From: Macrostomum lignano
Lineage: Eukaryota
Direction of reading: 5' to 3'
Assembly (NCBI GenBank): GCA_002269645.1
Contig: NIVC01005151.1
Coordinates: 1-24,670 of the forward strand
DNA: 24,670 nucleotides
A program made the translations under genes and the position numbers. The notes below the pieces were generated by a model. That model saw only the letters and a program-made list of their open reading frames with translations. It did no database searches and was not told the DNA's origin. Within the stretch, counting starts at the first letter, position 1; each line of letters begins with the position of its first letter. Positions 2,704-24,054 of this stretch are shown one piece after another.

Positions 2704-3387
2704 TCAAATTGATCGTGTGCACTTCACTCGGACAACTCGTAATCGCGGAGCCGAACCTCTAGCCAGATGAATAACTCTATTGTAAGACTGCGGGTGCGTC
2801 TTCACTGCTGAACCATCTGAGGCCAGGCGGTGTGGCTTCTGTGGTTGAGATCCATGTGCAGCAGCTGCTGCAGTACCTCCTCCGCTGCTCTGATGGTTCA
2901 GCTGGTGATGCTGCTGCAGTAAATGCTGAAGCTGCTGATGCTGCAGTTGCTGCTGGCCAGACTGACACCTCAGAAAGCGCACAATGGCCAGTCGGTATCC
3001 TTTGTTCATAAAACAGTAGAACAGAGGATTCAGAAACGCGTTCATGTAGCTGAGTATCCAGAACAGGACGTAGAGCCAATCTGTGCTGGTCAGGTTGGTT
3101 GTCCCTGTGACGATCATGTTCTCAACCACTTGCCAGGGCATATTGGTGAGCAGGAAGGAGATCAGTACGCAGGTGACAATGCGGAACGATTTCACCAGTC
3201 GGTTGGCCAGGGTTGAACTTCGACGTACATGTACGCCGGCATGCTGACGGGAGAGTCGGCTGTTGACTCCGCTGCCACCAGCTGTACATGTAGCTATTAG
3301 CGACTGCGAAGCGGTGTCCACGCAGCTCTCCTGCAGCGAGGAGGCTGCAGCAGCCAAGCGGTGATTGGGGCTTCTTGACTGACGAGC
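2704..3387 (-). CDS. Class A GPCR exon 2 (rest of ICL3, TM6, TM7, Gln/His-rich C-tail)
   Basis: TM6 FLLTNMPWQV, TM7 SYMNAFLNPLFY (NPxxY), helix 8 NKGYR. Acceptor CTGATTGCAG ends at 3388 in phase 0. Confidence 0.9.
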   Translation of the reverse strand, partial: ARQSRSPNHRLAAAASSLQESCVDTASQSLIATCTAGGSGVNSRLSRQHAGVHVRRSSTLANRLVKSFRIVTCVLISFLLTNMPWQVVENMIVTGTTNLTSTDWLYVLFWILSYMNAFLNPLFYCFMNKGYRLAIVRFLRCQSGQQQLQHQQLQHLLQQHHQLNHQSSGGGTAAAAAHGSQPQKPHRLASDGSAVKTHPQSYNRVIHLARGSAPRLRVVRVKCTRSI

Positions 3388-3453
3388 CTGCAATCAGGTT
3401 TTAGTGGGTGAACGACTTGAATTGAAATACTTTTAAGACGCTTCGCTTCCTAT

Positions 3454-5443: not shown

Positions 5444-5811
5444 GCGTGTGAGGGTTAGGAGCCTGCCGCGGAAGTGACAGCGGGATATCAACTTGGTTGA
5501 CAGGCTAGAGGACAAATTCTGTTTCTCAAACTTCGCAGATATTATCTCTGTGCCATTTTTAGCAGATCTTCTCAATCTGCTCGGTTCTTGCAGAATCTTC
5601 TACGAAGGGAGGTAAATTTGTTTTGTCATTCATTTGGCTTAAGTTTTAGCTTTATTATTTTTTATTTTCTGGTAAAATAGGACAATAAATATAATAAAAA
5701 TGTGATTTGAAGCTATAAGAACATATAAAAGTTAAGATCACAGAATACTGTGGTATTCTGTGGTTAAGATCTTGTACGATGTAGCAAGTCGCCCAGATCT
5801 GGTAAGTTTAC

Positions 5812-6930
5812 TGAAATACAATGGTTTTCTCGGGGTGGCCTGGTAGGTCTTTGAATCCCACCGCTGCCACCAGTGAAATAGATAGCGTTTTTCTCGGGGT
5901 GGCCTGGTAGGTCTTTGAATCCCACCGCTGCCACCAGTGAAGTACAATGGGTTTTCTTCCCGGTTTAGGCCCTTGCGGATTACCTTAATCTTGAGCCTCT
6001 TCAGTGGGAAGTTCTCTCAACTCTCTCAGTAGCGTAGGTAGTGCTGCCACCAGTTCCTTCAGGTCTCGGCCTTCGATGAGGTGAGCTTCCCGTCGGAACG
6101 AAATAAACAAGTCAACGAACTCAGCACAGTGTGCAGATTTGCAGATTAATGAACAAGGCGTCCTGATCAGCAGATCCCCGCCGGGCTCAGGGGTGGCTAG
6201 GAAGGCAGTGTTAGCCTCCCTTAGGCTTGGGCTTTAGTGGGGTCTCAGTCAGACCAGTACAAACGGATTCAGTACGCAAAGGGCACTTAGTTAGACACTG
6301 ACGCACACGGGTTCTTAGTGAATTCTCCGCAGATAAGAAGCCAAAATCCTTGACGGAAACAAGGGGAGAGGGGTCCTATTTATAGCCGGGAAACACCCAC
6401 GCACAAGACCTCGTGACTTGTTCTATTTTTAGAACTGACGTCACTTGAGATCTCGAGGCAGGGTCTCAGTGCGCGCAAGACCTCGTGACTCGTTCTATTT
6501 TTAGAACTGACGTCACTTGAGGTCTCCGGCCAGAGTACACGCGGCTGTGACTCAGTTGCTATTTTAGCAACATGAGTCACTCCTCTCCTTAGAGAAGGGA
6601 GGGGTCCAAAAGCACGTGATTCTCCCGGTAAACAGGGCCAACGAGTGCAGTAAACATGTTTACTGCACTTTAGGACTCGAAGAACGCAGAGTCTGTCATG
6701 TGACTTGCTCACATGACAGAGGAAAACGGGACGGGAACGAAACAGAGACAGCCCACAGCAGAGAAGCTAAGGGCTGAGAACAGAGACGCAGAAGGGCAGA
6801 ACAGTCCAAGGGCAGCAACAGACGGGCCAAGGGGGCGGGAAGCTGACCAGCGGCAGACAGCAACCCAGGGCGAGGGCGAGGGAGACTGCTGACAAAGTGG
6901 GACGCCTAACACAACTAGCGGATCACTACA
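5812..6930 (-). repeat. 3' LTR (1119 bp)
   Basis: Differs from 13873-14993 by 3 substitutions and 2 single-base indels on manual comparison. Confidence 0.95.
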
Positions 6931-6942
6931 CTCTCCCCGTTC
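6931..6942 (-). promoter_or_regulatory. Polypurine tract GAACGGGGAGAG
   Basis: Abuts the TGTAGT start of the 3' LTR. Confidence 0.9.
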
Positions 6943-7495: not shown

Positions 7496-7708
7496 ATGCG
7501 GGCAGTGCGACTAACATACGTCTTGGCCCTAGGATTAATAATTAGCCTCTCAGGCTGCCTACGATTCCTAGCCGGCCTACCGACATCTACAGACCCTAAT
7601 GACGCTTCCACCGGAGTGGTGCATAACGACGGCCCAGGGGTCTGGACCACAGAAAAAGCAGCACTGGGAGCGGGAGCAGAAACGGCGGAAAAGAAACAGC
7701 AGGCATAG
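7496..7708 (+). CDS. Possible antisense small protein (70 aa) with signal-peptide-like N-terminus in the retrotransposon 3' region
   Basis: ATG start; MRAVRLTYVLALGLIISLSGC has a basic n-region and hydrophobic h-region. No homology recognised. Confidence 0.2.
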   Translation: MRAVRLTYVLALGLIISLSGCLRFLAGLPTSTDPNDASTGVVHNDGPGVWTTEKAALGAGAETAEKKQQA

Positions 7709-8799
7709 ACGCATCAAGAACAGGCTTATGCAGATGACATTCACCATACGGCACTGGCTCACGCCGAAGTGCACTTGCCTGGTTCGCTGGTGTCGTGACC
7801 GGTCCACCTCCTGGCTGCACCTCCGGGATCGCCAAAGGCCGGAAGTGCCATCGGAAGGCCGGCCTTGCGTCGTAGCCGTCATCATCGTCATCGTCGGGGT
7901 CGTCCTGGTCGTCCTCGGGATTGGCGTCAGGGTCGCGGGTCCTGCGCCGTCGGGGACGTCGGGCGGCCGCCGGCGTTTCTTCGGTTTGTCGACTTCAGGG
8001 TCCGAAGTTCTCGTGTAGTCAGCGTCAGGCACGAGCAGAAGGTTCCGGCGATGGACGACTAGTTCGTCTCGTCTAGCTCTCGGGTTAGGCAGTCTCCGTC
8101 GAATCTTGTAGACGACCTCGCCCTTGGGCTCGACGACTTCGTACAGCGCTTTGCGAGGTCGATGAAACTTCGCCGCCTCATCCGGTTCGAGTACCGGGTT
8201 GTTGAGGAAGACCAGATCACCGGGTTGAAGCTTCTTGGCGGCGGGCAGGTTCGAATAGTGCTCGTCTCGCAGTTGCTGGTGCAGATGCAGGCGCTCCTTG
8301 GCTAGCTCAGTCGCCTCGTCCAGGCGACGTTGGAAGTCCTTGACGTAGTCGGGCAGGTCGGCGTACTCGGGCAGCTTCTTCAGCGCGTTGTCGATCGGGA
8401 GTCGGAAATCACGGCCGAACACCAGGTAGTGAGGCGTGAAGCCGGTCACCGGGTGCACGCTGGAGCGGAGAGCCATCAGACAGGCCGGGAGGAAGGTGTC
8501 CCAGTCGTTGTGGTTGCGCTCGAGCAGACAGGTGAGGACACTCTTCAGCTGTTTGTTGAGGTTCTCGACTTGTCCGTTGGAAGCTGGATTGTACGGTGTT
8601 GTTGTCGTATGCCGAATGCCAAACAGGTCGCAGAACTTCTTGAAGGCTGAGCCGGTGAAGTTGGTGCCTTGGTCAGTGTGGATCCAGCATGGTACACCGA
8701 ACTCGGGATGAAGCGCTCCTGCAGAAGCTTGATGACTGTTTTGGCTTTCTGGTTTCTCATCGGGTAGGCGAATGGATACTTCGACGTCGCATCGCACAA
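7596..8799 (-). CDS. pol: Pol: integrase catalytic core and C-terminal tail (frameshifted segments)
   Basis: IHTDQGTNF (D) and SNGQVENLN (E); GPY/F-like region KFHRPRKALYEVV. One-base deficits near 8800, 8708 and ~7935; the restored tail is Asp-rich (PEDDQDDPDDDDDDGY). Confidence 0.85.
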
Positions 8800-10300
8800 G
8801 TCAGGATGTAGCGGTTGCCGCTCTTGCTCTTCTGCGCGATTGGTCCTACTACATCACAGTGGATTCTACCCAGAACTTCGCAAACTGGGAAGCTCTGGAC
8901 CGGAACTCTCTCTCGCCGTCGCGATTTACTTTCAAGGCAAGTGCGGCACTTACTGATGAAGGTCTTGGTAGCACGGGCTAATCCGGGTCTCCAGAACCGT
9001 TCTCGTAGCCGCAGTAACGTCTTCGTCTCGCCGAGGTGTCCACACAGTGGCGAACTGTGGAGCTCCTGGAGCACCTGGGCGTCAAGGGCCTCAGGCAGAA
9101 CAACCTTTGGCGGCTGCTGGCCATCAGTCAGATCAATCAGCAGCAGGCCGTTGTCCTCCTGCAGGTTCTCGTAGTATCCGAGCAGATTCCGCTGCTCCTT
9201 AGTCAGTCGCAACCGGGCGTCGAACTCAGGCTTCGGGGCTTCGTTCTCGACCAGGTTGAGCACGTAGCTGATGGCTCGGTCAGCGCGTTGGGCGTCAACG
9301 AACTGTTGGCGAGTCATCGGCAGCTTCAGAAAATCAGTGAGCACAGCGCGGCATGGCTGAGGGGTCATGACTCCCGCAGTCTCCGCTTTAATGGCTCCAG
9401 GTCGATCACACGGCACCGTCTTGTCGGCGTCAGGATTAGGTCGCTCCGAGGGACTTTGTCTCACAACGTCGGCGTACGTCCGTTGATCTAGAATCGAAGT
9501 TCTCTTCATCGCTCTCATGACAGAAAAATCCGCAGATGGAGCAGCGCGCATGCCTCCACTGCATAGCCCAGGCGACTCTTGGCTGTAGGGCGGGACGCAA
9601 CACGTGAAGCACGCCTCGTCGCTGGCAGCTGTAGCCGTCGGCTCAATCGTAGTCAAAATTGGGTGAGTCTTCTCCTGCACTGGGCGGTGTCGCAAAGGGG
9701 GACTCGACTTTCCGCACAGGCGATGAGCAGCTGTCTGTCGGCCCGGGGGACAGAGCTTCGACCTTGCAGCTGGCGCGAGATTCTGGCCTCTGTCAACACG
9801 GCGAGAAATCTCAGCGAAAGGCTCGGCGGGGTTGTAGTTAAATTGCTTGCCTGGAGTTGCGTTGCGGGCCGTCATCAGAAGGGCTGCTGGTGCGGTGGCC
9901 TTTGAATCTTGGTCCGTGGGCGTCTCCAGAGTCCGAGACCTGTAGTCTTGGGCGTCGTCAAGGAGGTCTGTGTCCACAGTGGCCTCAAGGTCTTCGTCCA
10001 GGTTGGTCTCCAAGTAGCGGCAGTCGGCGTGGGCATCGTTGCAGAGGGCTGTTGTCACAGTGGCCTCTGAGTTGTCGTCCAGGCCGAACTCCAGGCGTTG
10101 ACTGCATCGGTGGGCGTCGTGCTGGAAGGCTGCTGGCGCGGTGGCTTCCAGGTCTTCGTCCAGGTCAGTCTCGGCCTCCAAGGAGCGAGAGTGGACAGTC
10201 TTCGGGAGGGCTGCTCTGGCAGTGGCCTCGGGTGTCGCGTCCAAGTCCGTTTCCAGGAAACGTCGGCGCTCAGTCTTGGGCTGTCGCCGGCACCGGGTTG
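8800..10300 (-). CDS. pol: Pol: long RH-IN linker with acidic repeats plus integrase HHCC zinc-binding domain and first catalytic Asp
   Basis: LHSSPLCGHLG...CRTC (HHCC); IHCDVVGP. Confidence 0.85.
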
Positions 10301-11116
10301 GGCTGCAGAACCGGGTGGTTCAAGGAGTCGGCCATGCTCGAAGGTGATCGGTGGTGTCTCCGGTCTTCTTGACAGGGCGTCGGCGTTGACGTGGTCCTTG
10401 CCTTTGCGGTGGTTGAGCTGGAAGCGGAACTCGCTTAGGCGTTCGATCCAGCGGCCTAAAATACCTGTGGCCTGAGTTTGGTTCAGTAACCACAGTAAGG
10501 CCCGATGATCGGATCGAACTTCAAACTTCTTGCCGATTAAGTAATGACGGAAATGTCGCATAGCGTCCACAATTGCAAGCAGCTCTTTCTTCGTGACCGT
10601 GTAGCGCTTCTCAGGATCGCGAAGTTTACGGCTAAAGAATGCAATTGGACGTTCGACGCCGTCGGATTGCAGTTGTCCAAGGCAAGCGCCTATTCGAATA
10701 TCAGAGGCATCCGTGTCGAGGACAAACTTCACAGCAGGATCAGAATTAAATTCAGGCAGAGCGAGAACTTCAGTAGAACACAATTTCTTCTTCAAAGTGT
10801 CGAACGCTACCTGATGCTCGGGAGTCCAATGCTGCCGCAGGCTGCCAATGTCCTTTCGCGTCAGGGCATGCAGCGGCGCAGCCACTCCAGCGTAGCCGTC
10901 GACAAACTTGTGGTAGTAATTGGCGAGGCCTAGGAATTGTCTCAGTTGAGTAACGGACTGTGGCACGGGCCAATCACGGATCTGCGCAATCTTGTCCTCA
11001 CAGGTCTTCAGGCCGTCGGGAGTCACGACGTGACCTAAATAATGCAGCTCCTTGAGGAACAAATGACACTTCTTCGGTTTCACTTTGAGGTTGGCTGCGA
11101 TGATGCGCTGGAGCAC
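10300..11116 (-). CDS. pol: Pol: RT C-terminal part, connection and RNase H
   Basis: KPKKC...YLGHVV, FLGLANYY, LDTDAS, RPIAFFSRKL, KELLAIV, SDHRAL, NADALSR. Confidence 0.93.
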
Positions 11117-11142
11117 AGTCGCAGATTATCCAGCTGTTCCTC

Positions 11143-12755
11143 AAAGTCACTGAGTGCACCACGATGTCGTCCATGTAGCCAAGCGCAGTCTTTGGCGTCA
11201 GGCCGTCCAGGAGCTTATTGATGCAACGCTGAAAGCTGCCAGGACTGTCGTGGAGACCCATCGGTAGAACGTTGAAACAGAATTGGCCGCGGTCGATTAC
11301 TGAGAATGCCGTCAAGTGCTGGTCGCAGTCGCGCAGCGGGATCTGCCAGAATCCTTGAGCAAGGTCCAAGCTAGAATACCACTGAGCACCACGAAGCTTC
11401 GCGAAGGTTTCCTGGATGTGCGGGAGCGGATACGGGTGATACACACACCTGTCGTTGAGAGCTCTGAAGTCGTGGACTAGTCGGATGTTGCCGTCCTTCT
11501 TGGGCACGATGAGCATTGGCGAGTTGTAGCTCGAGTAGGCAGGGCGAATGATATGCTTCGCCAGCATCTCGTCTAGCAGGGCGTCGAGCTTGTCCTTCAG
11601 ATGAGGCGGGATTCGGCGCGGTGGTAGCGCGACTGGTGTCCGGTCCTTCAAGATGATCTCGTGGGTCACCAGGTGAGTCAGGCCGGCGTCTAGCGAGTGC
11701 TTGGAGAAGGCCGCTTGACATTCGACTAGTAGATCTCGCACTCTTCGATGTTGTTCTTTGGACAATTCGCTGTTGATCTCGACTTCATCTAGCCATGCTG
11801 TGCTGGATTCTTCAGAGTTCTTCGGGAGGTGTCGCACTTCAGGTTCGGGCGTCTCGCTCAGGTACATCAGGTCGGCAGTTCGGAGTGGCGTCGCAACACC
11901 CACACGGATACCGGCTTGCAGGAACACCTCGCTGTCGGCGGTGTTGACGACCTCAATGTAGCCGCGACCTTCAGGCATCGTCATCAGAGCAGGCGCTGCT
12001 TCCAGAGCGTTGCAGCTGGGATGCAGCCTCGACTTAACCAGCTCGACAATTGATGGCGATCCTCGATTCTCAGGGTGGCCGTCATCCAGTCTGACGGCAA
12101 GCAGCGCTGAACTTCTAGGCGGCAGGGTGCACTTCTCAGAGGTGTACACTCGGCAGTTCTGAAGCTCACGCCGCGAATAACGAACAGGGATGCACGTGCC
12201 ATTGTTGAACGTTAGCATTCCTTGAGCGAAGTCCAAGTTCTGGCAGTGCTCTCGCATAAACGATACGCCAAGCAAATTTTCACAATCGGAGACCGTAACG
12301 AGGAATTCGGTGTCCGCGACGACATCACCGAACTCCACCGGGATGGTCACCTTACAAGCAAGCGGGAGCTGCGTCCCGTCATACATAGTTACGCAATCGG
12401 GAATAGCATGCGATATAATACAACGAGGCATCCGGCGTCTAATAGCGGCCCAGGTTGACGAACCGAGGAAGTTTTTCCGGCTGCCGCTGTCTAGCAAGAA
12501 AGGGACCTCTCGACTCGCCACTCGACCTGTGACGTACGGATCGGCCTCACGCGCATGGATTTTTTGATTCGGGGAGGTGTCCACGAAACCTCCGCACTCA
12601 GCGTCGCTTACTGACGAGCGACTGTCGGACTGGGCATTGGCGCCTGCGCAGCCGACATCCTCTTCTTCTCGCGACCGTTCTGAATCTGCCAAGTAGCCTG
12701 GGCTTGGACCTCGCGGAGGGCGGTGCCGTTGTCGCTCTCCGCCTGGCCGTTTCCC
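11143..12755 (-). CDS. pol: Pol: aspartic protease and RT N-terminal part
   Basis: FLLDSGS protease motif; LDLAQGFWQI, LPMGL, YMDD RT motifs. Two one-base deficits at ~11110-11143 before the next segment. Confidence 0.93.
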
Positions 12756-13780
12756 TGGTTCTGGCGCATCGGGCACTGGGTGTTGCGATGACCGGGCTGT
12801 CCGCAGCTATAGCAGATTATAGCTCTCTTTGGCGGGCTGGCTACCTGCTGTTGGTCACGCTGCACCAGGTGATCCAGCATTCGCTGCTGCTTCTCAATCA
12901 AGTCGGTTAGAGTCAGCAAGGCTTGGGCGGTGACGTCGGGTTTCGGGTCGCCGTCCTCCTCCCCGTCCAACATCCTAACCGGGGGTTGAGCAGATCGGTG
13001 CGCCAATTCTTTGGCGCCTTCTAGTCGTCGTAGCTCTCGAATCGCAGCAAGAAGATTGTTCGGGCGAACCCAGTACAGCCGTTCGCGCAGATCTGGAGTC
13101 GTCCGGATACCAGCAAGAAATTGATCAGTAATCTCCTTCTCGCGGTCTTCAGGATGCATTCGAGGATATGCACGTTCACCCAGAGTTCTCAGGGCGTCAG
13201 CGAACTCTTCTGCTGACTCATTCTTGCCTTGTTGACGACGCCTCAACAGCTCTCTGTACTCATCAGCACCACCATGACGGGCAAATCGCTCAATCAGACG
13301 TTGCTTGACCTCCTCGTAGCTGGCGAAACGCGGAAGATTCATACCAAGCAAGGCAGGATACGCAGTAGCTAAGTCAAGACTCGCGATGAGGTGTTGTTTC
13401 ATCTCGAACGGGTCGACGATGCGCTCCATCTCGCAACGCTGCTCGAACGCGGCAAGCCAGACATGAATGTCCTGACTTGGAGTAAATTTCACAATTTTAA
13501 CTTGTTTACTCACGGGCCGCTCCATCTGCTGCTGCAGAGCTGCCATCATGGTCCTCACGTCCTGGTGCGTGATGTTCCGGCCGATGTTGTCCAGGCCTTG
13601 CAGAAGCTCGTCTGGCGGGTCGTCGGACACGTCGCTTCTGGCACCTCGCCTCGGCGTCGGCTGCTGACCAAGGTCGTTGATCGCTGCTGCTGCTGCGGCG
13701 TCCGCTGCCGCAGGCCTCGAACTGCTGATGTGCTGATCCCGCCGGCTGCTGCACCGGCTCTCGTCTCGTTCGTTGAACAT
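12608..13780 (-). CDS. gag: Gag (capsid-like domain, single CX2CX4HX4C zinc knuckle)
   Basis: First ATG after the PBS is at 13780 (MFNERDE); retrotransposon gag-like QGKNESAEEFADALR; knuckle CYSCGQPGHRNTQC. Confidence 0.9.
   Translation of the reverse strand: MFNERDESRCSSRRDQHISSSRPAAADAAAAAAINDLGQQPTPRRGARSDVSDDPPDELLQGLDNIGRNITHQDVRTMMAALQQQMERPVSKQVKIVKFTPSQDIHVWLAAFEQRCEMERIVDPFEMKQHLIASLDLATAYPALLGMNLPRFASYEEVKQRLIERFARHGGADEYRELLRRRQQGKNESAEEFADALRTLGERAYPRMHPEDREKEITDQFLAGIRTTPDLRERLYWVRPNNLLAAIRELRRLEGAKELAHRSAQPPVRMLDGEEDGDPKPDVTAQALLTLTDLIEKQQRMLDHLVQRDQQQVASPPKRAIICYSCGQPGHRNTQCPMRQNQGNGQAESDNGTALREVQAQATWQIQNGREKKRMSAAQAPMPSPTVARQ
12700..12755 (-). promoter_or_regulatory. -1 programmed ribosomal frameshift signal: G GGA AAC slippery site plus downstream stem (GGCGGAG...CCGCC/CTCCGC)
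   Basis: Heptamer at 12755-12749 is in the gag frame (Q-G-N); the -1 frame reads GKRPGGE into protease; a GC-rich stem starts 5 nt downstream. Confidence 0.8.
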
Positions 13781-13850
13781 GTTGAACTCGTAGTAGTCGC
13801 TGGCCGAAGTCGTTCTCGAAAGAGCGGTTGGCTTGGGTGTGTCGTAGTCG

Positions 13851-13871
13851 GATCTCACCGCTGCGTCACCA
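13851..13871 (-). promoter_or_regulatory. Primer binding site, imperfect match to tRNA-Leu 3' end (TGGTG-AC-GCAGCGGTG-A-GAT)
   Basis: One nt after the 5' LTR CA; complementary to ...AUCCCACCGCUGCCACCA with a 2-nt bulge and a mismatch (tRNA sequence recalled from metazoan tRNA-Leu(AAG/UAG)). Confidence 0.8.
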
Positions 13872-14437
13872 GTGAAATACAATGGTTTTCTCGGGGTGGC
13901 CTGGTAGGTCTTTGAATCCCACCGCTGCCACCAGTGAAATAGATAGCGTTTTTCTCGGGGTGGCCTGGTAGGTCTTTGAATCCCACCGCTGCCACCAGTG
14001 AAGTACAATGGGTTTTCTTCCCGGTTTAGGCCCTTGCGGATTACCTTAATCTTGAGCCTCTTCAGTGGGAAGTTCTCTCAACTCTCTCAGTAGCGTAGGT
14101 AGTGCTGCCACCAGTTCCTTCAGGTCTCGGCCTTCGATGAGGTGAGCTTCCCGTCGGAACGAAATAAACAAGTCAACGAACTCAGCACAGTGTGCAGATT
14201 TGCAGATTAATGAACAAGGCGTCCTGATCAGCAGATCCCCGCCGGGCTCAGGGGTGGCTAGGAAGGCAGTGTTAGCCTCCCTTAGGCTTGGGCTTTAGTG
14301 GGGTCTCAGTCAGACCAGTACAAACGGATTCAGTACGCAAAGGGCACTTAGTTAGACACTGACGCACACGGGTTCTTAGTGAATTCTCCGCAGATAAGAA
14401 GCCAAAATCCTTGACGGAAACAAGGGGAGAGGGGTCC

Positions 14438-14445
14438 TATTTATA
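14438..14445 (-). promoter_or_regulatory. LTR TATA box TATAAATA (copy in 3' LTR at 6377-6384)
   Basis: Canonical TATA immediately downstream of the enhancer-like repeats in U3. Confidence 0.7.
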
Positions 14446-14459
14446 GCCGGGAAACACCC

Positions 14460-14785
14460 ACGCACAAGACCTCGTGACTTGTTCTATTTTTAGAACTGAC
14501 GTCACTTGAGATCTCGAGGCAGGGTCTCAGTGCGCGCAAGACCTCGTGACTCGTTCTATTTTTAGAACTGACGTCACTTGAGGTCTCCGGCCAGAGTACA
14601 CGCGGCTGTGACTCAGTTGCTATTTTTAGCAACATGAGTCACTCCTCTCCTTAGAGAAGGGAGGGGTCCAAAAGCACGTGATTCTCCCGGTAAACAGGGC
14701 CAACGAGTGCAGTAAACATGTTTACTGCACTTTAGGACTCGAAGAACGCAGAGTCTGTCATGTGACTTGCTCACATGACAGAGGA
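14460..14785 (-). promoter_or_regulatory. U3 enhancer: 72-bp direct repeat with two CRE palindromes, paired AP-1 sites, E-box, forkhead palindrome, M-box hairpin
   Basis: TGACGTCA at 14497 and 14569; TGACTCA/TGAGTCA pair; CACGTG; 26-bp palindrome at 14706-14731; TCATGTGA/TCACATGA stem at 14754-14782. Function is inferred from motifs. Confidence 0.55.
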
Positions 14786-15142
14786 AAACGGGACGGGAAC
14801 GAAACAGAGACAGCCCACAGCAGAGAAGCTAAGGGCTGAGAACAGAGACGCCGAAGGGCAGAACAGGCCAAGGGCAGCAACAGACGGGCCAAAGGGGCGG
14901 GAAGCTGACCAGCGGCAGACAGCAACCCAGGGCGAGGGCGAGGGAGACTGCTGACAAAGTGGGACGCCTAACACCAACTAGCGGATCACTACATTACCCT
15001 AAGTATTATCATAGCGAAGATCTTGCACGTTCTTGAAAGTACTTGCGCAGCAACCCAAGAAGATAGATAAGATCTGTTAAGAATCAACAAGTCAATGCCT
15101 TCTAGGGGATCCTTGGACTGAACAGCCGTACGCAGCCTTCAG

Positions 15143-15843
<701 letters not shown>

Positions 15844-15851
15844 AGACTCAC

Positions 15852-16574
15852 CGCGTTGGTCGAAGTGGCACCAAAAGCGCGAGAGGACTTGAGAATGCGG
15901 AATACCACAGCGCCGTAAAAGAAGACCAGCAGCACGATGGGGATGTACAAGGCCACCGTCCGGTGTGCGATGCCCGCCGCGGTGTCCTGGTAAATCGGAT
16001 GGCCGCAGGCACCGAAGGCCTCCCTGGCCCGGAAGCCGGACAGCACGGCCCACATGGGGAAGGTGGCGATGCACCTGGCGGAGGTGACGAGCCACACCGC
16101 GGCGCACAGACGGAGCTGATTGGCGCGGTGCATCCAGCGCTTGTGCAGGAACACAAAGTTAGTAGCTAAAAATCTGTCGAAAGCAACAGTGGTCACGCTC
16201 AGCATGCCAACGTTAGTGCTGATGTAGTCCACCGTGATCCACAGGTCGCAGGACCATTTCGGCAGCGGCCAGCCGCCGCACAGGGTTCTCACCAGGTAGC
16301 CCGGCAGAGCCAGCATGCCGACAAGAATGTCGCTGCTCACCATCAGGCCGACGATGAACACGTGACCGGGGACGCGGTGGACGCTGCGGTCGCGAAGGAA
16401 GACGGCAAAGATGGCCGCGTTGACGAAGGTCACGTAGCCGGCAAGCAGAGAGCCGAGGGAGGCGAGCAGCAGGCGATGGGAGAGTTTGTAGGGGCTGCTG
16501 ACGGAGCAGGAGACGAATGAGGAGCGGTGATCGGTGGCGTTTGGAGTTGCTGAGGGCAGACTGTGGAGAGACAT
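15852..16574 (-). CDS. Class A GPCR exon 1 (N-terminus, TM1-TM5), muscarinic/aminergic-like
   Basis: N-glycosylation site NAT; D2.50 (SSDILVG); WPLPKWSC; TM3 CDLWITVDYISTN...FDRF resembles muscarinic CDLWLALDYVxSN...FDRY; TM5 ALYIP. Confidence 0.92.
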
Positions 16575-18515
16575 CCTTGAGCGGTGGAGGTTGAGCTGAG
16601 AAAAGTAAAACCTTTCGCACGAGGGCGTTAGAGTATTTTCGCTCTTTTTTCGTCTGATCGGGGCTTCGTATATTTGATCCGTTTTGCCTTGGTCGGCTGA
16701 TGAGGATTAAGGGCTGCTGACAGCTGATTGGCTCCTCGAGTTGGTATTGGAACTCTTTCTTCCCTGATCTTCCCTTTCAAGCTCAATCAAATGAATATTC
16801 TTGCACATGTATTCTCTCCGTTTGTCTATCTTTGCTATCTGCTTTGGTCCTTATTCTCAACATGTACATCGTTCAAGTAAAGAATTTCATTGGTTGCATA
16901 TATGGACTTCGATTGCGTATAGGCGGACAAAGACCATTAAACGTCTAAACAAAGTTACGAGTACATGTACACAGTACATCCACCAGCTCCTCATACAAAT
17001 GTCCAGTTTAGTGTTTGATTGATTGTTTACACATGCAGGTAAAGCCTGTGACTCGTTGGTGCGAAAGAAAAAAAAACATATTTTGCAAAGCTGTTTCCTG
17101 ATTCTGACCGTGTGAAAGATATTGCTATACCTGTACTGTATCTTGAAAAATTGACGTGCAAATCTATAGGAATTCAACTTTTTGTTTTACTTATACACTG
17201 CTTCATTAGAGCGCACGCATTTAACATGATACCTCATTCGGGTTAAGTTGTTCGAATCTTTACCCGAAGTCGGACGAGTATACTATTTAAGATAGCACTC
17301 AGTATGGCTGCTGCGGATTAGTAACTAATACAATATACTAGTAGTTTACATGCAAATTATTAATTTTTATTATTATTATTTTATATGATTATTTTATGAT
17401 TATTTTATATTTATTATTATTAATCTGTTTTGAGTTTCAAACCAAGACATTGTTTGTATGCAATAATTAATGTTAACCTTTGACTGCGTTGTGAATCGAT
17501 TTGTAATACAATTTTGAACAAAAAAGCTAACTTAGTCAAAATACAACGCATAAGCTGCATGGCGATTTTAATTGACTCATCGTTACAATATTAATTAATA
17601 CAAACAGTCTGTAAGCTGTAGTTTGTCGATTAAATAAGTCACTATTAATTTTAGATTTACCTGTCTGTATGCATAAATGAAGTCAATATATATATTTAAT
17701 TGTCAGGTTTTCGAATATTTAATTTTCTATATCTTATAACCTAAAAAATGCACAGGCAGAAATTCGTTAGACTGAAATATTAAATAATGTTTCTTATTTT
17801 ATTTACGAGTACTCTTTTATTACTTGCAGTCATTGTAGCTAGATATAAAAATTTTTACTGATAATTATACTATTATTAATATAATAGATTATACGTTAAT
17901 ATTATGAAAATAATAATATAATTGTTAAAATTATAATATTATCAGTATATTATCAATATCGATTTTCAGACACACTGTAGTAACTTAGTCTAAATGTTCC
18001 AACATTTTTATTGTTTAACTTTTTTGTTTTGAATAATTTATACAATTTGGTTTGTGTATTATAAACTGTCTGTAATATATTTCAAGCTGGTAACTTAGCT
18101 AAAGCCTCGCTAATCTTCATGACTACTGCTGCAACTATCTCGAAAGTTTCATCTATAAGTTTTAACTCAAATTCTCAACTTGAATTCTCATTCCTGTTAT
18201 TCATTATAACAGGCAAGCAAGAACAAGCATTTTCCAATAAATGCCGGCCAGATGTGTCACAAAAAGTGTAAGTGCACACCATAGAAATTTAAATGAATTA
18301 TGGAGGATAAGTGAAAAGAGGGGTAGAATTAATCATTTTTAGTTGCAACAAACTTTGAATCAAAATGGTTCCATTATTGAAATACGTCAGCATTTGTCCT
18401 AAATGAGTTCCTGAGCCCCTCCATCGGACTAAAAGTGCAGCTTCTGCAGTTCCCTGAGCACACGCTCCACAATGCCTCAGCTTCTCCAAACTCTCCTCTT
18501 CAGCTCAGATGAGCC

Positions 18516-20066
18516 ATGACCGAAGCCACTCAAGCAGGCAGTCGGCGCTGCTCCCTGGCCACCTGCAGCGAAGCAGCTGCTGGCGCCGGAGCTCAGACAC
18601 TGCAGCCTCTGTGCCAGAGACACCTGGACCGAGACTCCGACAGAGTGCGCGAAATTCATGCCAGAGTCGAAGCGAGGCTGCAGCCTCTGAGGCTCGTTCG
18701 CGACCTGCTAAGAACGGACTCGCAGGCGCTAGAAGCGAAGCTACAGGTCACTGAGGATCTGCTCAATGCCGCCATTGAGTCGCTGATGAAGCACAAGGAA
18801 GCTGTTACGAATCGACTCACTGCCACAACTGACGCAGCAAGGCAGAAGCTGAGCGACTTCGCAGTGCTGCAGGAGTTCGACAGCTCGATGGCAGCGGCGG
18901 AAAGCGCCAACAATCTTCGAGGCATCTTTGAGCAGTGCTCTCGCATGGAGCTGGAGTGCAGCGATCTCGAAAACGCTGTGTCTGGTGGAGACGAACAAGG
19001 ACGACTGAAGCTGGGCGACGTTTGCGGAGCTCTGAGAGACTTGCAGCTGAGCATCGACAGGCAGTTCGAGGACGTGATGAAGCTGTTCGAGAGTGTTAGT
19101 CCGCTGAGAGAGGAGAAGCAGAGCATTTGTGAGTTCCACAGCGAGATCCAAGAACTCGATGGTGCGCCTGCTTGGGTTTCATGCTGCAGCAACACGAAGG
19201 GCTTCTCCGCTGATGCTTCAGGCAGCAAAGTGGTGAAGGCGGAGTCTGCGGTCGATGGTGCACAGATGCTTCCCGAGCCGTGTCTGTTCGTAGCTTTTGA
19301 TTTGCGATCCGATCTGGATTACCTTCTCGCGTGTTCGATTGACGGATCCGTGAGGCTGAAAGTTCAAGTCGACCTCGACTGGTTCACGCCAATCACAGGA
19401 CTCAGCTGTGACAGCAAGCGCCAAGCTCTGTACATCTCGCAGAAAAACGTGGTCAAGGTGTCGGACCTGAGCGGTCAGGTGTCACTCGAGATCAACTCGA
19501 GCAGCCTCGGACGGCCTGTCAGATTCATGGGGCTGACCTGCAGCTCTGACAAGATAATTGCTCTGGACAAAAGCGGCTCGGAAATGCAGCTGCTGTGCAT
19601 CGACAAAGACAGCGGCCAGCTGCAGACCTGCGTTTCTGTCGGTGGCGTGCCCAGTTCCCCAGATCGCTCGGAATCCATGTCGGTCATCGACCATGCGGTG
19701 CTGATCACTGACTGGGCAGCTAAAAAGATCTACAAAGTGTGCATCGTCAGCGGTCAGCTGATCTCGACCTACCCGACAAGCCGAAGTCGTCTTGATGAGC
19801 TTCTGAGTCCTGCAGGAGTTGTGGCTCATCGCTCAGGTCTGGTGTTCGTCAGCGAGTATAATAGGCATGTGGTTCGTGTGATGCAAAGTGACGGCACTGT
19901 GCTGCAGACTGTCGGAGTCGAGGGCGAGGCTGGCAGAGGCCGAGACAAAATGCACTGTCCGTGTGTCTTGGGCACCGTCGAAGGCGACTCAGAGCTGCTT
20001 GCCGTGTGCCAGAGGGAAGGACTGTCCATCAGATTTTACCGAGTTTCAACTGGTTCTGCCGTGTGA
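18516..20066 (+). CDS. Intronless TRIM-NHL-like protein without RING: C-x4-C-x15-C-x2-H finger, coiled coil, NHL-type beta-propeller (516 aa)
   Basis: Heptad-rich helical segment; NHL-like blades, e.g. LSPAGVVAHRSGLVFVSEYNRHVVRVMQSDGTVLQTVG. Confidence 0.8.
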   Translation: MTEATQAGSRRCSLATCSEAAAGAGAQTLQPLCQRHLDRDSDRVREIHARVEARLQPLRLVRDLLRTDSQALEAKLQVTEDLLNAAIESLMKHKEAVTNRLTATTDAARQKLSDFAVLQEFDSSMAAAESANNLRGIFEQCSRMELECSDLENAVSGGDEQGRLKLGDVCGALRDLQLSIDRQFEDVMKLFESVSPLREEKQSICEFHSEIQELDGAPAWVSCCSNTKGFSADASGSKVVKAESAVDGAQMLPEPCLFVAFDLRSDLDYLLACSIDGSVRLKVQVDLDWFTPITGLSCDSKRQALYISQKNVVKVSDLSGQVSLEINSSSLGRPVRFMGLTCSSDKIIALDKSGSEMQLLCIDKDSGQLQTCVSVGGVPSSPDRSESMSVIDHAVLITDWAAKKIYKVCIVSGQLISTYPTSRSRLDELLSPAGVVAHRSGLVFVSEYNRHVVRVMQSDGTVLQTVGVEGEAGRGRDKMHCPCVLGTVEGDSELLAVCQREGLSIRFYRVSTGSAV

Positions 20067-23000
20067 CACAAATGACTGTAAATCACCTTTCGATTCAGCT
20101 CTGCATCTGCATGTTTTTGCTTTATCAAAATGTACTATTTTTATGCTCTGCGTGTTTTGACACATGAATTGAAGCTTGACCATTATAGTTTTAGAATTTG
20201 TGCCTGGTAACAGCAGTAATTTTGTATAACAAAGCGGATTTTTACCTTAACCATGACTTCAGCAGAGAAAATGAGTTCGTCTTTGACTTTTAAATGGATG
20301 TGTTTCACCAATTTTGAGAATTTCAGTTCCAAACTTGGTGAAATTTAGTTGCAGATTTTGCATTTAGGCGTTGATATGGTTTCGCTGTTACAAGTTGTTC
20401 GCTGTTGCTGATTTAGATTTAGATTTATTAAATTATTAAATAATCAAATTTGATTATTTGATTATTAAATTTAGATTTTGCTTGAATATGAATGGGAGTT
20501 TCATTTGTGAGTTTAACTTGGTGGCAGCTAAGTTCTTCTGGCTACCTGGGTGAACGAGTGTTGAATTAGCGAATAAATCAGGTGCTATTCCGGACATGAA
20601 TGCTGGCTCTAGATTTTGGCTGTGTGATTTTATTTGTTAGGCCGAGCTCAAACATCATCTGATTTGCCGACGAACTCAGCGCAGTTCAGGCGCTGCTCTG
20701 ATGAAGAACCAAGGCTGCCAGCTTCGTAAGGCTTTGTTTGACGTCTTTGTTATTCAGCTCAGACAGTTTGACTCAAAGCATTCTCATGTGTTTGACTGCA
20801 CCATGTGAGTTGTTGCTAATCTGATGCCTGATCAGTGCTCAATTGCATGCATTGCTACTCATCTGTACTACGAGCAAACGAATCTTGAAGGTTTTTATGA
20901 GTCCTGATGACATCTGTGATAACTTTTATTGAATTTTAAAACTTCCAAATCTTTACCAGCCAAGCTAATGTACCGGTTTCTGCTGTCTTGCAGTTGGGTT
21001 TATTGATTTTTTGTGACTAGTGGTGTACTTTAGCTAACAACTGCGTGTACTTTTACCAGCAGCAGCCAATGTTGCCTCAAATACATCAGTTTGCAGAGCT
21101 GTTATTGTTGTGATGCTGTTCGACAAATTTCATTTTAAACACGATCATGCAATCAGCATCAGACAGAGCAACAAGTGCCAGCTGAGTAGATCCGAAACCC
21201 CTCAAGACTGAGCTAAGCTGAAGGCATCATTTGATGAGGTAAATTAAAAAAACTCAAGCTCTCAGATACTTAAGATTTCTTATGTTCTCCCCAATTAACC
21301 TACTGAGGCTGAGACCTGGGATTTTCTATGACCCATTTTCTATGATTTTCTATGAGACGACTCTGCACCCTCGTGGCCAATCCGATGGGATTCGGCACAG
21401 AATCCGCTCCGGTAGTTCGACTAAGCTGACATCTTTTTTCGGTGTTGTAAAAGTCCCTGAGCTGGTCCTGCGCAATGCTGATGCAGTGTCTCCCGCAGCT
21501 GATCCATTTTCTATCAAAACAATAATGAAGCATTTTAGCCTGGCGCATTCGATATATTGAAAACTTTTTGCACATTTTCAACGCCATTCTTCAAGCACAA
21601 TGTCTGACTCGAGCCCGAGCTGCTTCATCAGAGGCTGCAGCGCTGCCCCGACCGGTACCGGCGTTCGCCTCCCAGAGCCCCTGTGCGAGAGACACGTGGC
21701 TCAGGACGCTGCCGCGGTGCGCTACCTCGCACAGAAGGCGCTCGAGCAGCTGCAGCCGCTGAAGAGTCTGCGAGACGGCCTTCGAGTTCATCAGCGAGCG
21801 CTAGCAGCCGAGCTGCAGAGCGTCGAGCAGCTGTTCGAGTCGGCTGTGGAGTCGCTGCTCACCTACAAGGAATCTGTGCTCAACCGATTGACTGTGAGAC
21901 ATGAGAGCAGCCTGCAGAAGCTGAATGAGCTGTCAGTGCTGCAGGAGTATGAGATTGGCCTTACTGAAGCTGAGGCCAATGCTGACCTGAAGACATTGCT
22001 CTCACTCTCAGCTGCAGTGAGTGCGGAGTGCGGCGACTTGGATGAAAAGAGAGACAGCTTTGAGTAAGTCGGCAGAGACATTGGCGACGTGAGCGGAGGC
22101 GTGAGAGACTTTCAGCTGCTGATTGACAGGCAGCTGAGCGATGTGATGAAGCTGTGCGAGAGTGTTGGTCCGCTGAGCGAGGAGAAGCAGAGCATTTGTG
22201 AGTTCCACAGCGAGATCCAGGGACTCGGTGGTTTGCCTCTTTGGGTTTCATGCTGCAGCAACACGAAGGGCTTCTCCGCTGATGCTTCAGGCAGCAAAGT
22301 GGTGAAGGCGGAGTCTGCGGTCGATGGTGCACAGATGCTTCCCGAGCCGTGTCTGTTCGTAGCTTTTGATTTGCTATCCGATCTGGATTACCTTCTCGCG
22401 TGTTCGATTGACGGATCCGTGAGGCTGAAAGTTCATGTCGATCTCGACTGGTCCACGCCAATCACAGGACTCAGCTGTGACAGCAAGCGCCAAGCTCTGT
22501 ACATCTCGCAACAAAACTGGGTGAAGGCGTCGGACCTGAGCGGTCAGGCGTCGCTCGAGATCAACTCGAGCAGCCTCGGACGGCCAGTCACATTTATGGG
22601 GCTGACCTGCAGCTCTGACAAGATAATTGCTCTGGACAAAAGCGGCTCGGAAATGCAGCTGCTGTGCATCGACAAAGACAGCGGCCAGCTGCAGACCTGC
22701 GTTTCTGTCTGTGGCGTGCCTTATGGACAAATATTTGACGAATCCATGTCGATCATCGACCATGCGGTGCTGATTACCGATTGGGAAGCTGGTAAGCTCT
22801 ACAAAGTGTGCATTGACAGCGGTCAGCTGATCTCTACCTACCCGACTAAGCGAAGTCGTTTTGATAAGCTTCAGAGTCCTGCAGGAGTCGCTGCTCATCG
22901 CTCGGGTCTGGTGTTCGTCAGCGAGTGTTTTAATCATGTGGTTCGTGTGATGCGTAGTGACGGCACTGTGCTGCAGACTGTCGGAGTCGAGGGCGAGGCT

Positions 23001-24054
23001 GACAGTAGCGAAGACAAAATAAACCATCCGTATGGCTTGGCCATCGTTGAAGGGCACTCCGAGCTGCTTGCCGTGTGCCAGGAAGAAAGCCTCTCCATCA
23101 GATTTTACCGAGTTTCAACTGGTTCTGCTGATTGACGGCGGATGATTGTGAATTTACCTGTTATCGCCATGTTTTTGCTGAATTACAAATTTTTATTTTT
23201 ATAATCTGCATGTTGGACCAATTAATTGGAGCTGTTTTACCGCAGCCTGTGAGCACAGAATAGAAAATGAGCTCGTCTTTGATTTTTAAATGGATCTGCT
23301 TTACGAAATTGTTATGCTTTGCCAATTTTCAAAATTTCAGTTACAAACTCGGAGCACCAATTTTCGTGAATTCTGTTAGCAGACTTTACATTGACGCGTT
23401 GATTTGGTTTTCCTTTAGATCTGCTTGTAGAGCTAATCTGTGATTATGATTGATCAGGAGGTTCATCTGTGGGTTTAACTTCTAAACTACCAGGTTATTC
23501 TGGCTACCTTCGTGAATAAGTGAAGAATAAGCGAATAATCAGGTGACATTCTAAACATGAATGCTGGCGCCAGATTTTTGTCTCATCAGAGCTTCTGCCG
23601 CTTGAGGCTACTCAAAGTTGCTGTTAGAGTTTATTTGTTAAGCCGTGCTCCAATAAAATATGATTTGTATCTGTTCTATTCAGACAGTTTGACTCAAAGC
23701 ATTCTCAAGTGTTTGACTTTACCATGTGAGTTGTTGCAAATCTGATGCTTGACAGTGCTCAATTGCATGCATTTCTACTCATCTGTCTCATCTAATATTG
23801 GAGGCTTTATGAGTCCTGATAATATCTGTGATAACTTTTATTGAATTTTAAAACTTCCAAATATGTACCAGCCAAGCTAATGTACCGGTTTCTGCTGTCT
23901 TGCAGTTGGTTTTATTGATATTTTTAGTAGTAACGTACTTTAGATAACAATTGCGTTTACTTTTACCGGCAGCTGCCAATATGTTGCGTGAAATAAAGAA
24001 GTTTTCAGAGCTGTTACTGTTGTGCTGCTGTTTGACAAATTTCTTTTTAAACAC
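20067..24054 (+). repeat. Homologous 3' flanks of the two NHL genes (20067-21142 vs 23136-24054): ~3-kb tandem segmental duplication
   Basis: Shared blocks, e.g. CCAGCCAAGCTAATGTACCGGTTTCTGCTGTCTTGCAGTTGG and CAGACAGTTTGACTCAAAGCATTCTCA. Confidence 0.85.
21600..23135 (+). pseudogene. Tandem paralogue of 18516..20066 interrupted by a single in-frame TAA (22065-22067)
   Basis: ORFs 21600..22067 and 22089..23135 share one frame and together are collinear with copy 1; no other lesion seen. Confidence 0.75.

Follow-up and report, generated by a model that had tools for sequence, protein, structure and literature searches.

The window, by which we mean the whole 24,670-nt stretch analysed here, carries on its minus strand a single, young Ty3/gypsy element. 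It is an LTR retrotransposon of this class, with TG...CA LTRs, a target site duplication (TSD), a primer-binding site (PBS), a polypurine tract and the order gag, reverse transcriptase (RT), RNase H and integrase; its protease was recognized by eye only, from a DSG motif, with no Pfam match. The TSD is TTAC at both ends, and the two LTRs differ by three mismatches and two one-base indels in their alignment. A protein search with the element returned, as its top two matches, proteins named Macrostomum lignano at 57% identity; none of the protein matches bears the name of a gypsy clade. Both LTRs contain the same two tandem units, each with a perfect tRNA-Leu PBS, placed upstream of the imperfect outer PBS. 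The features are as follows.

14438..14445, minus strand: TATA-like box, called by motif only
13873..14993, minus strand: 5′ LTR, TG...CA, 1121 bp including two units, from the LTR alignment; TTAC at 14994-14997
14104..14113, minus strand: 10-nt PBS remnant followed by a CUACC arm, also at 6043-6052; similar remnants occur in families B, C and D
13998..14020, minus strand: original LTR end of the unit-less form (unit-less copies end here) and variable subterminal segment
13934..13997, minus strand: unit 1, 64 bp, with perfect tRNA-Leu PBS (13978-13997), loop, anti-PBS arms (13967-13972 and 13959-13964), variable tail and LTR-end motif, from sequence and fold prediction
13872..13933, minus strand: unit 2, 62 bp, with perfect PBS (13914-13933), anti-PBS arms (13903-13908 and 13895-13900) and a tail unlike that of unit 1, from sequence and fold prediction; it also holds the LTR end used for integration and a 1-nt spacer
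13852..13871, minus strand: outer PBS of 20 nt, in which two extra nucleotides follow position 5 and one G>A change is present, from sequence; a family allele found at 43 places
12608..13780, minus strand: gag with a CCHC zinc knuckle (PF00098)
7577..12806, minus strand: pol, split by frameshifts in this assembly into four ORF pieces, with RT, RNase H and integrase arranged as in gypsy
6931..6942, minus strand: polypurine tract adjoining the 3′ LTR, from sequence
5812..6930, minus strand: 3′ LTR, 1119 bp, with the same two units as the 5′ LTR, from the LTR alignment; TTAC at 5808-5811
5873..5936, minus strand: unit 1 in the 3′ LTR, from sequence
5812..5872, minus strand: unit 2 in the 3′ LTR, with the TSD at its end, from sequence

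Given the position of the TATA-like box, the units would lie downstream of the likely transcription start; neither AATAAA nor ATTAAA was found within the LTR of the window element. The same insertion is assembled a second time on contig C224 and partly on C4574. The gag frame is open upstream of the gene (12608-14077) across both units, whose 126 bp are a multiple of three, with no ATG there. A 72-bp tandem repeat in U3 (14461-14525 and 14533-14597) carries the motifs TGACGTCA and TTCTA..TAGAAC, and its repeat number differs among copies. Just inside the LTR end (13998-14015, and likewise in the unit tails), 10–14 bases are hypervariable, with 20 variants in 60 copies (L122-L181) and the remaining LTR near-identical; once priming has occurred, these bases are copied before any others. 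The element is flanked by rhodopsin-family GPCR pieces (15837-16706 and 2704-3393), which may belong to a single gene that holds the element in an intron, and further along lies a pair of paralogous ORFs 3 kb apart (18513-20066 and 21561-23135), the first of which has no Pfam match.

The sequence-only reading had located the perfect 20-mers at 13914-13933, 13978-13997, 5853-5872 and 5917-5936, and all four are exact on the minus strand; every other coordinate that it gave is correct as well. It had also matched them to tRNA-Leu, and the 20-mer is indeed the exact complement of host tRNA-Leu 3′ ends plus CCA, and all 12 genomic pattern matches were tRNA-Leu genes (7 AAG and 5 TAG). These Leu(AAG/TAG) genes were missed by an Rfam tRNA search, which scored 63 of about 62,000 candidates. 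The probability that one such 20-mer turns up in the window by chance is 4e-8, and the genome contains 312 exact copies, against none of the reversed control. The unit lengths of 62 and 64 bp given by that reading were also confirmed, as was its 10-nt partial PBS at 6043-6052, which has a second counterpart at 14104-14113. This remnant is likely a collapsed older unit.

The leader that follows the outer PBS was found at 63 places in the genome, which define family A. Sixty of these were fetched and the other three were read from earlier loci or from the window; the 60 fetched copies, nine of which lack the 3′ end, correspond to 51 independent insertions after nine were merged as duplicates. 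A 4-bp TSD was read in 38 independent insertions. No unit is present in 31 of the 51 insertions, and the rest have one or two, except for C4285, with four; L143 has two units at each end. Homologous units of 71–89 bp are present in three more groups, D, C and B, whose RT is 97%, 75% and 72% identical to that of the window element. Units of 62–89 bp are common to LTR subtypes and to families with RT 72–97% identical. Genome-wide, 336 PBS copies are followed by this type of stub, the segment downstream of the inner PBS, and with a pattern that allowed an insertion, 100 of 100 stub-bearing sites were perfect among the matches listed (of 336). The array thus recurs in many independent insertions and is not confined to the window copy.

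Tandem PBS arrays with other stubs also exist. Two further stub types, of 35 and 59 bp, occur in the genome; an AT-rich family (L103/L214) has three 59-bp PBS units, an outer site with only 11 matching bases and no hairpin. In a marine metagenome assembly, three unrelated loci (L222-L224) carry 2, 5 and 4 tRNA-Leu PBS copies, with an LTR-like end before each. These are short palindromic LTR-like elements made up mostly of tRNA-Leu PBS units, one of them with the 4-bp TSD GCAT. Head-to-tail elements with a common LTR were seen at L162/L163/L165, L176/L177, L220 and L221, and the last LTR of L165 carries one unit and differs in its downstream part. Longer family members (L134:6302-9016) extend pol by ~800 residues past the integrase core, with no Pfam match in that part, and one family copy (L155:3-2744) contains an ORF for a LINE-type endonuclease and RT.

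The sequence-only reading had also proposed that the perfect PBS could be folded away by a downstream complement, and this holds, as a prediction, in three families and with two helices, GGUGGC/GCCACC and GGUGGG/CCUACC. In the window units, PBS positions 2-7 and 11-16 are predicted to pair with the stub, which mimics the tRNA 3′ end. For the whole unit the folding z-score is about -2 (5 and 6 of 200 shuffles), a modest value, and -0.2 for the outer site. Over 60 distinct contexts, the predicted cost of opening the PBS was 13–20 kcal/mol in the GACCT-type units of families A–D, compared with 2–14 kcal/mol at outer sites. Each inner PBS is therefore predicted to be folded shut by its own stub, and the outer PBSs are not. 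Among the 30 units of family A, the PBS and its two anti-PBS arms hardly change, whereas variation in the tail beside the LTR end reaches 63% of rows; the arms are also conserved between families with RT 72–75% identical. At equilibrium, however, the computed net binding of the tRNA remains stronger at the folded inner sites (-25 kcal/mol) than at the bulged outer site (-17 kcal/mol), which rules out the hairpin as a sufficient thermodynamic block, and thus it could act only kinetically. No occluding hairpin was found in the tandem arrays of the L103 family (59-bp units) or in the marine loci L222-L224. At outer sites (13848-13851 in the window, and in families B, C and D), a CG lies two bases past the 18-mer and pairs with C56-G57 of the tRNA T-loop; its G is absent from nearly all inner units, a possible determinant of site choice.

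The canonical PBS had been described as imperfect. This is true of the window copy and fails as a family rule: the outer PBS is perfect in 14 of the 60 fetched family A copies and altered in 46, 45 of these by a 2-nt insertion. Counted by independent insertions, 39 of 51 are altered and 12 perfect. The bulge is present in 9/12 copies of group C, 7/18 of D and 0/15 of B. Five bulge alleles are found across families A, C and D, always with two additional nucleotides and always at positions 6-8, and an identical G>A change is present in the outer PBS of A and C. Each of the 43 sites with the AC bulge is followed by the leader, and none by a stub; correspondingly, no bulged inner unit was found among the units seen. 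A search of the genome assembly, which may be incomplete, for a tRNA gene templating the AC allele gave no matches. Since 27 of the 39 insertions with an altered outer PBS have no unit, the bulge needs no units, and the same 27 rule out the idea that units compensate for the bulge. On the tree, the perfect outer sites are dispersed among the tips (12 rows needing 12 changes), as one-way reversion predicts, and the persistence of the bulge nevertheless implies selection. It is likely, then, that the 2-nt bulge is a trait separate from the units and kept by selection. Perfect sites are not always dead ends, as all 15 sites of family B are perfect and the near-sisters L136 and L150 both have a perfect outer site.

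Which PBS primes can be read from the LTR ends. The TTAC duplication lies at the outermost end in the window copy, so its priming at the bulged outer PBS, as first read from the sequence, holds. In families B–D, 36 pairs were tried, 15 of which yielded no 3′ count. Both ends were readable in 35 unit-bearing insertions (19 in A, 8 in B, 4 in C and 4 in D), with the TSD read in 33, and the integration end adjoins the outermost PBS in at least 31 of the 35. Unit counts at the 5′ and 3′ LTR are equal in 30, higher at the 5′ LTR in four and higher at the 3′ LTR in one. Priming at an inner site only would shorten the 3′ LTR, and so it explains at most 4/35 insertions (p 3e-6 against half); alternative priming sites, one of the options raised for the array, are therefore minor at most. 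If inner and outer sites primed at the same time, both LTRs would lose a unit and these counts would not show it. For HIV and MLV vectors engineered to have a dual PBS, Voronin and Pathak reportedly found that initiation at both sites deletes the intervening sequence.

Units are highly labile, with 5 of the 35 unit-bearing insertions differing between their own LTRs. Unit presence on the 44-row leader–gag tree required 15 changes, compared with a mean of 14.4 after shuffling, although the resolution of this tree is weak (the first leader–gag tree left out 11 rows and a later one five more, and 8 of 38 branches are starred). Four copies that are 1–4 differences apart carry 0, 1, 1 and 2 units. 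The 30 family A units have 21 distinct tails, multi-unit arrays are mixed in five of six cases, and five different first units are found on one LTR backbone. In L127 and L168, the 5′ LTR carries one unit and the 3′ LTR lacks it, the TSD is intact and the outer PBS is perfect; the nearest relatives of both are unit-less bulged copies, to which they are identical over 900 nt and from which they differ by 16 and 7 positions in 6.5 kb. These would be fresh 5′ gains of a unit, which fits capture during plus-strand transfer. L237, with two identical units at the 5′ LTR and one at the 3′ LTR, fits the same landing event in cis, and L245, with one unit at the 5′ LTR and two at the 3′ LTR, all identical, and the outer bulge kept, fits loss of a unit on the minus strand. 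L247, by contrast, does not fit the landing route: it has two units at the 5′ LTR and one at the 3′ LTR, a bulged outer site and LTRs 97.7% identical. In L131 and L141, the differences between 5′ and 3′ LTR are nearly confined to the part downstream of the TATA box, which shows that two RNAs do become mixed; this would supply donors, yet it is also a rival route to unequal LTRs. The computed DNA pairing of the tRNA-copied 18-mer is stronger with an inner site (-26.9 kcal/mol) than with the bulged site (-19.4 kcal/mol).

Several known systems resemble parts of this arrangement. In the mouse elements ETn, MusD and IAP, imperfect PBSs are the commonest and perfect ones are scattered on the tree, for which escape from 3′ tRNA fragments (tRFs) has been proposed (Cullen and Schorn 2020, PMC7472051). 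As in these endogenous retroviruses (ERVs), the imperfect PBS is commonest in family A (39/51) and perfect ones are scattered, family B being the exception; unlike them, this is a flatworm gypsy element with a bulge that is always of two nucleotides at one place and with perfect copies nearby in U5. The same review states that Ty3 inherits its PBS strictly (PMC7472051); in the present families, the way perfect sites are scattered is suggestive of partial reversion. The tRF classes set out in the available portion of a planarian study are 5′ and internal ones, with no 3′ class among them (PMC7962491). Ty1 has a multipartite PBS, Ty3 a bipartite one and Drosophila Gypsy two PBSs, the extra sites of Gypsy pairing with the anticodon and T stems (PMC1635307). 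These elements, like ours, have more than one tRNA-binding site; in contrast, the units described here repeat the full 3′-end site, vary in number and are missing from 31/51 insertions. The array is not a multipartite PBS of this kind, since the same 3′-end site is repeated, it is optional and it shows no significant pairing with other tRNA arms. It shares with the dual-PBS vectors two primer sites per RNA and differs from them in that its units are natural, number up to four and each bring along a spare LTR end as well as a hairpin predicted to be occluding. The main text of a paper on Ty3/gypsy (Ty3/Mdg4) families of Macrostomum lignano does not contain PBS, primer binding or tRNA, and a leader motif was not found in its five supplements (PMC12801592). 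No description of natural tandem PBS units was found in a search of the open-access literature. The tandem PBS-unit architecture is thus real and recurrent, and it appears to be undescribed.

We consider it somewhat more probable than the opposite that the units are cassettes propagating through reverse transcription, beside a separate, selected imperfect outer site. Plus-strand strong-stop synthesis halts at the methylated A58 of the tRNA. The plus-strand strong-stop DNA would end in an 18-nt copy of the tRNA, as is established for retroviruses (PMC7472051). To gain a unit, this tRNA-copied end would land on the complement of an inner PBS in U5, on its own minus strand or on a co-packaged one, and the landed end would copy the stub, the LTR end and the tRNA again before the normal transfer. 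This would leave an extra unit at the 5′ LTR only, with perfect sites templated by the tRNA, and the next cycle would copy the new unit into both LTRs. Loss would follow from misaligned transfer or from simultaneous priming at inner and outer sites. The hairpin may slow tRNA loading on the inner site, so that folded units would escape deletion and remain in the donor strand; they could persist on their own account, without having to benefit the element. The bulge, for its part, would keep priming and weaken a host attack on the PBS by 3′ tRNA fragments or a PBS-binding repressor. Of the four options offered by the sequence-only reading, iterative capture of primer copies is the best supported, because copies with units do not cluster on the tree, adjacent units are mostly different and two copies resemble recent 5′ gains. 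The gain route through plus-strand landing is drawn from the sequences of two or three copies, and copies of the L127/L168 type could also be explained by inner priming or by read-through on a second RNA. A bolder form of this reading, which we hold tentatively and think doubtful, makes the unit a parasite of the retrotransposon: a gene-less 60–90-bp cassette that would spread among co-packaged elements and families via the tRNA-copied plus-strand strong-stop end, hide its own primer site in a hairpin, thereby avoiding deletion, and impose its own LTR end on the element that hosts it.

The array might instead be an ordinary unstable tandem repeat, descended from one old duplication of the U5–PBS junction and changing by RT slippage and unequal recombination, with the hairpin inherited and the units unselected. 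That most copies manage without units (31/51) agrees with this, as do the unrelated hairpin-less PBS arrays with other stubs (the L103 family and marine L222-L224), the decayed units in U5 regions and the identity of the units involved in L237 and L245. Slippage, however, cannot create a first unit on a unit-less LTR, which L127 and L168 appear to have, and the PBS and anti-PBS arms are nearly fixed beside a variable tail, the arms being kept even at 72–75% RT identity; we regard this account as unlikely, while giving it more weight than the others that follow. A duplication made by the assembly of this contig has a negligible probability: the assembly does have indel errors and duplicated loci, but the two units differ, each LTR contains both of them, and units recur in many independent insertions whose TSDs are not the same, which refutes it, and the region is covered by contigs of four of 24 public runs, none of them recorded as RNA.

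Functions for the perfect inner sites fare less well. They might be protective, acting as decoys for either 3′ tRNA fragments or a repressor that binds the PBS and so offering an alternative to bulging the real site. In family A, units accompany 8/12 perfect outer sites and 12/39 altered ones (Fisher p 0.042), and family B, with all outer sites perfect, has units in 12 of 14 readable copies; stub-bearing sites number 336 in the genome, and equilibrium tRNA binding to inner sites is still favourable. Yet in independent pairs the association falls short of significance (median p 0.375), and it is also predicted by gain with a tRNA-templated site, host 3′ tRFs are hypothetical here, a perfect site on the same RNA should itself draw silencing and a folded site is a poor decoy. 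The decoy or sponge raised in the sequence-only reading is thus hard to reconcile with the predicted occlusion and with its location on the same RNA as its target, and we find it improbable. Still less probable is that the units recruit primer tRNA and hand it over to the weak outer site, as in the multipartite PBSs of Ty1, Ty3 and Drosophila Gypsy. The stub sequences AGACC and GGCCAC do match the tRNA-Leu D arm, and the family B U5 (L092, upstream of 1500) contains a near-complement of nt 1-22 of tRNA-Leu(TAG) ~60 bases before the first PBS. Stub–tRNA pairing, however, gave p 0.08–0.46 against shuffles, so the stub as a D-arm binding box is rejected; inner sites compete for the tRNA 3′ end rather than bind another arm; and with the 27/39 altered-site insertions that lack units, the proposed tRNA-recruiting module is unsupported. 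A 7-nt complement of the tRNA-Leu(TAG) anticodon loop lies upstream of the first LTR end (14024-14030 in the window; L120) and is no better than shuffles (p 0.22–0.43); in some copies, it fits the AAG loop instead.

LTR ends and primer sites are usually taken as fixed single features, and here they form a repeatable module. In about one in seven insertions with units, the two LTRs are unlike in this module, so that strand-transfer errors and the mixing of RNAs in particles can be read from the genome. Annotation software that settles on the first PBS behind an LTR-like end will set the LTR borders of these elements in the wrong place. If the unit were a parasite, arrays would record past co-packaging partners in order, and elements that have escaped the host through a bulged primer site would be its easiest targets. 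The recurrent 2-nt bulge extends the trade-off of priming against silencing from mouse ERVs to an invertebrate gypsy element, and its natural pairs of bulged and perfect alleles on near-identical backbones are suited to testing that trade-off.
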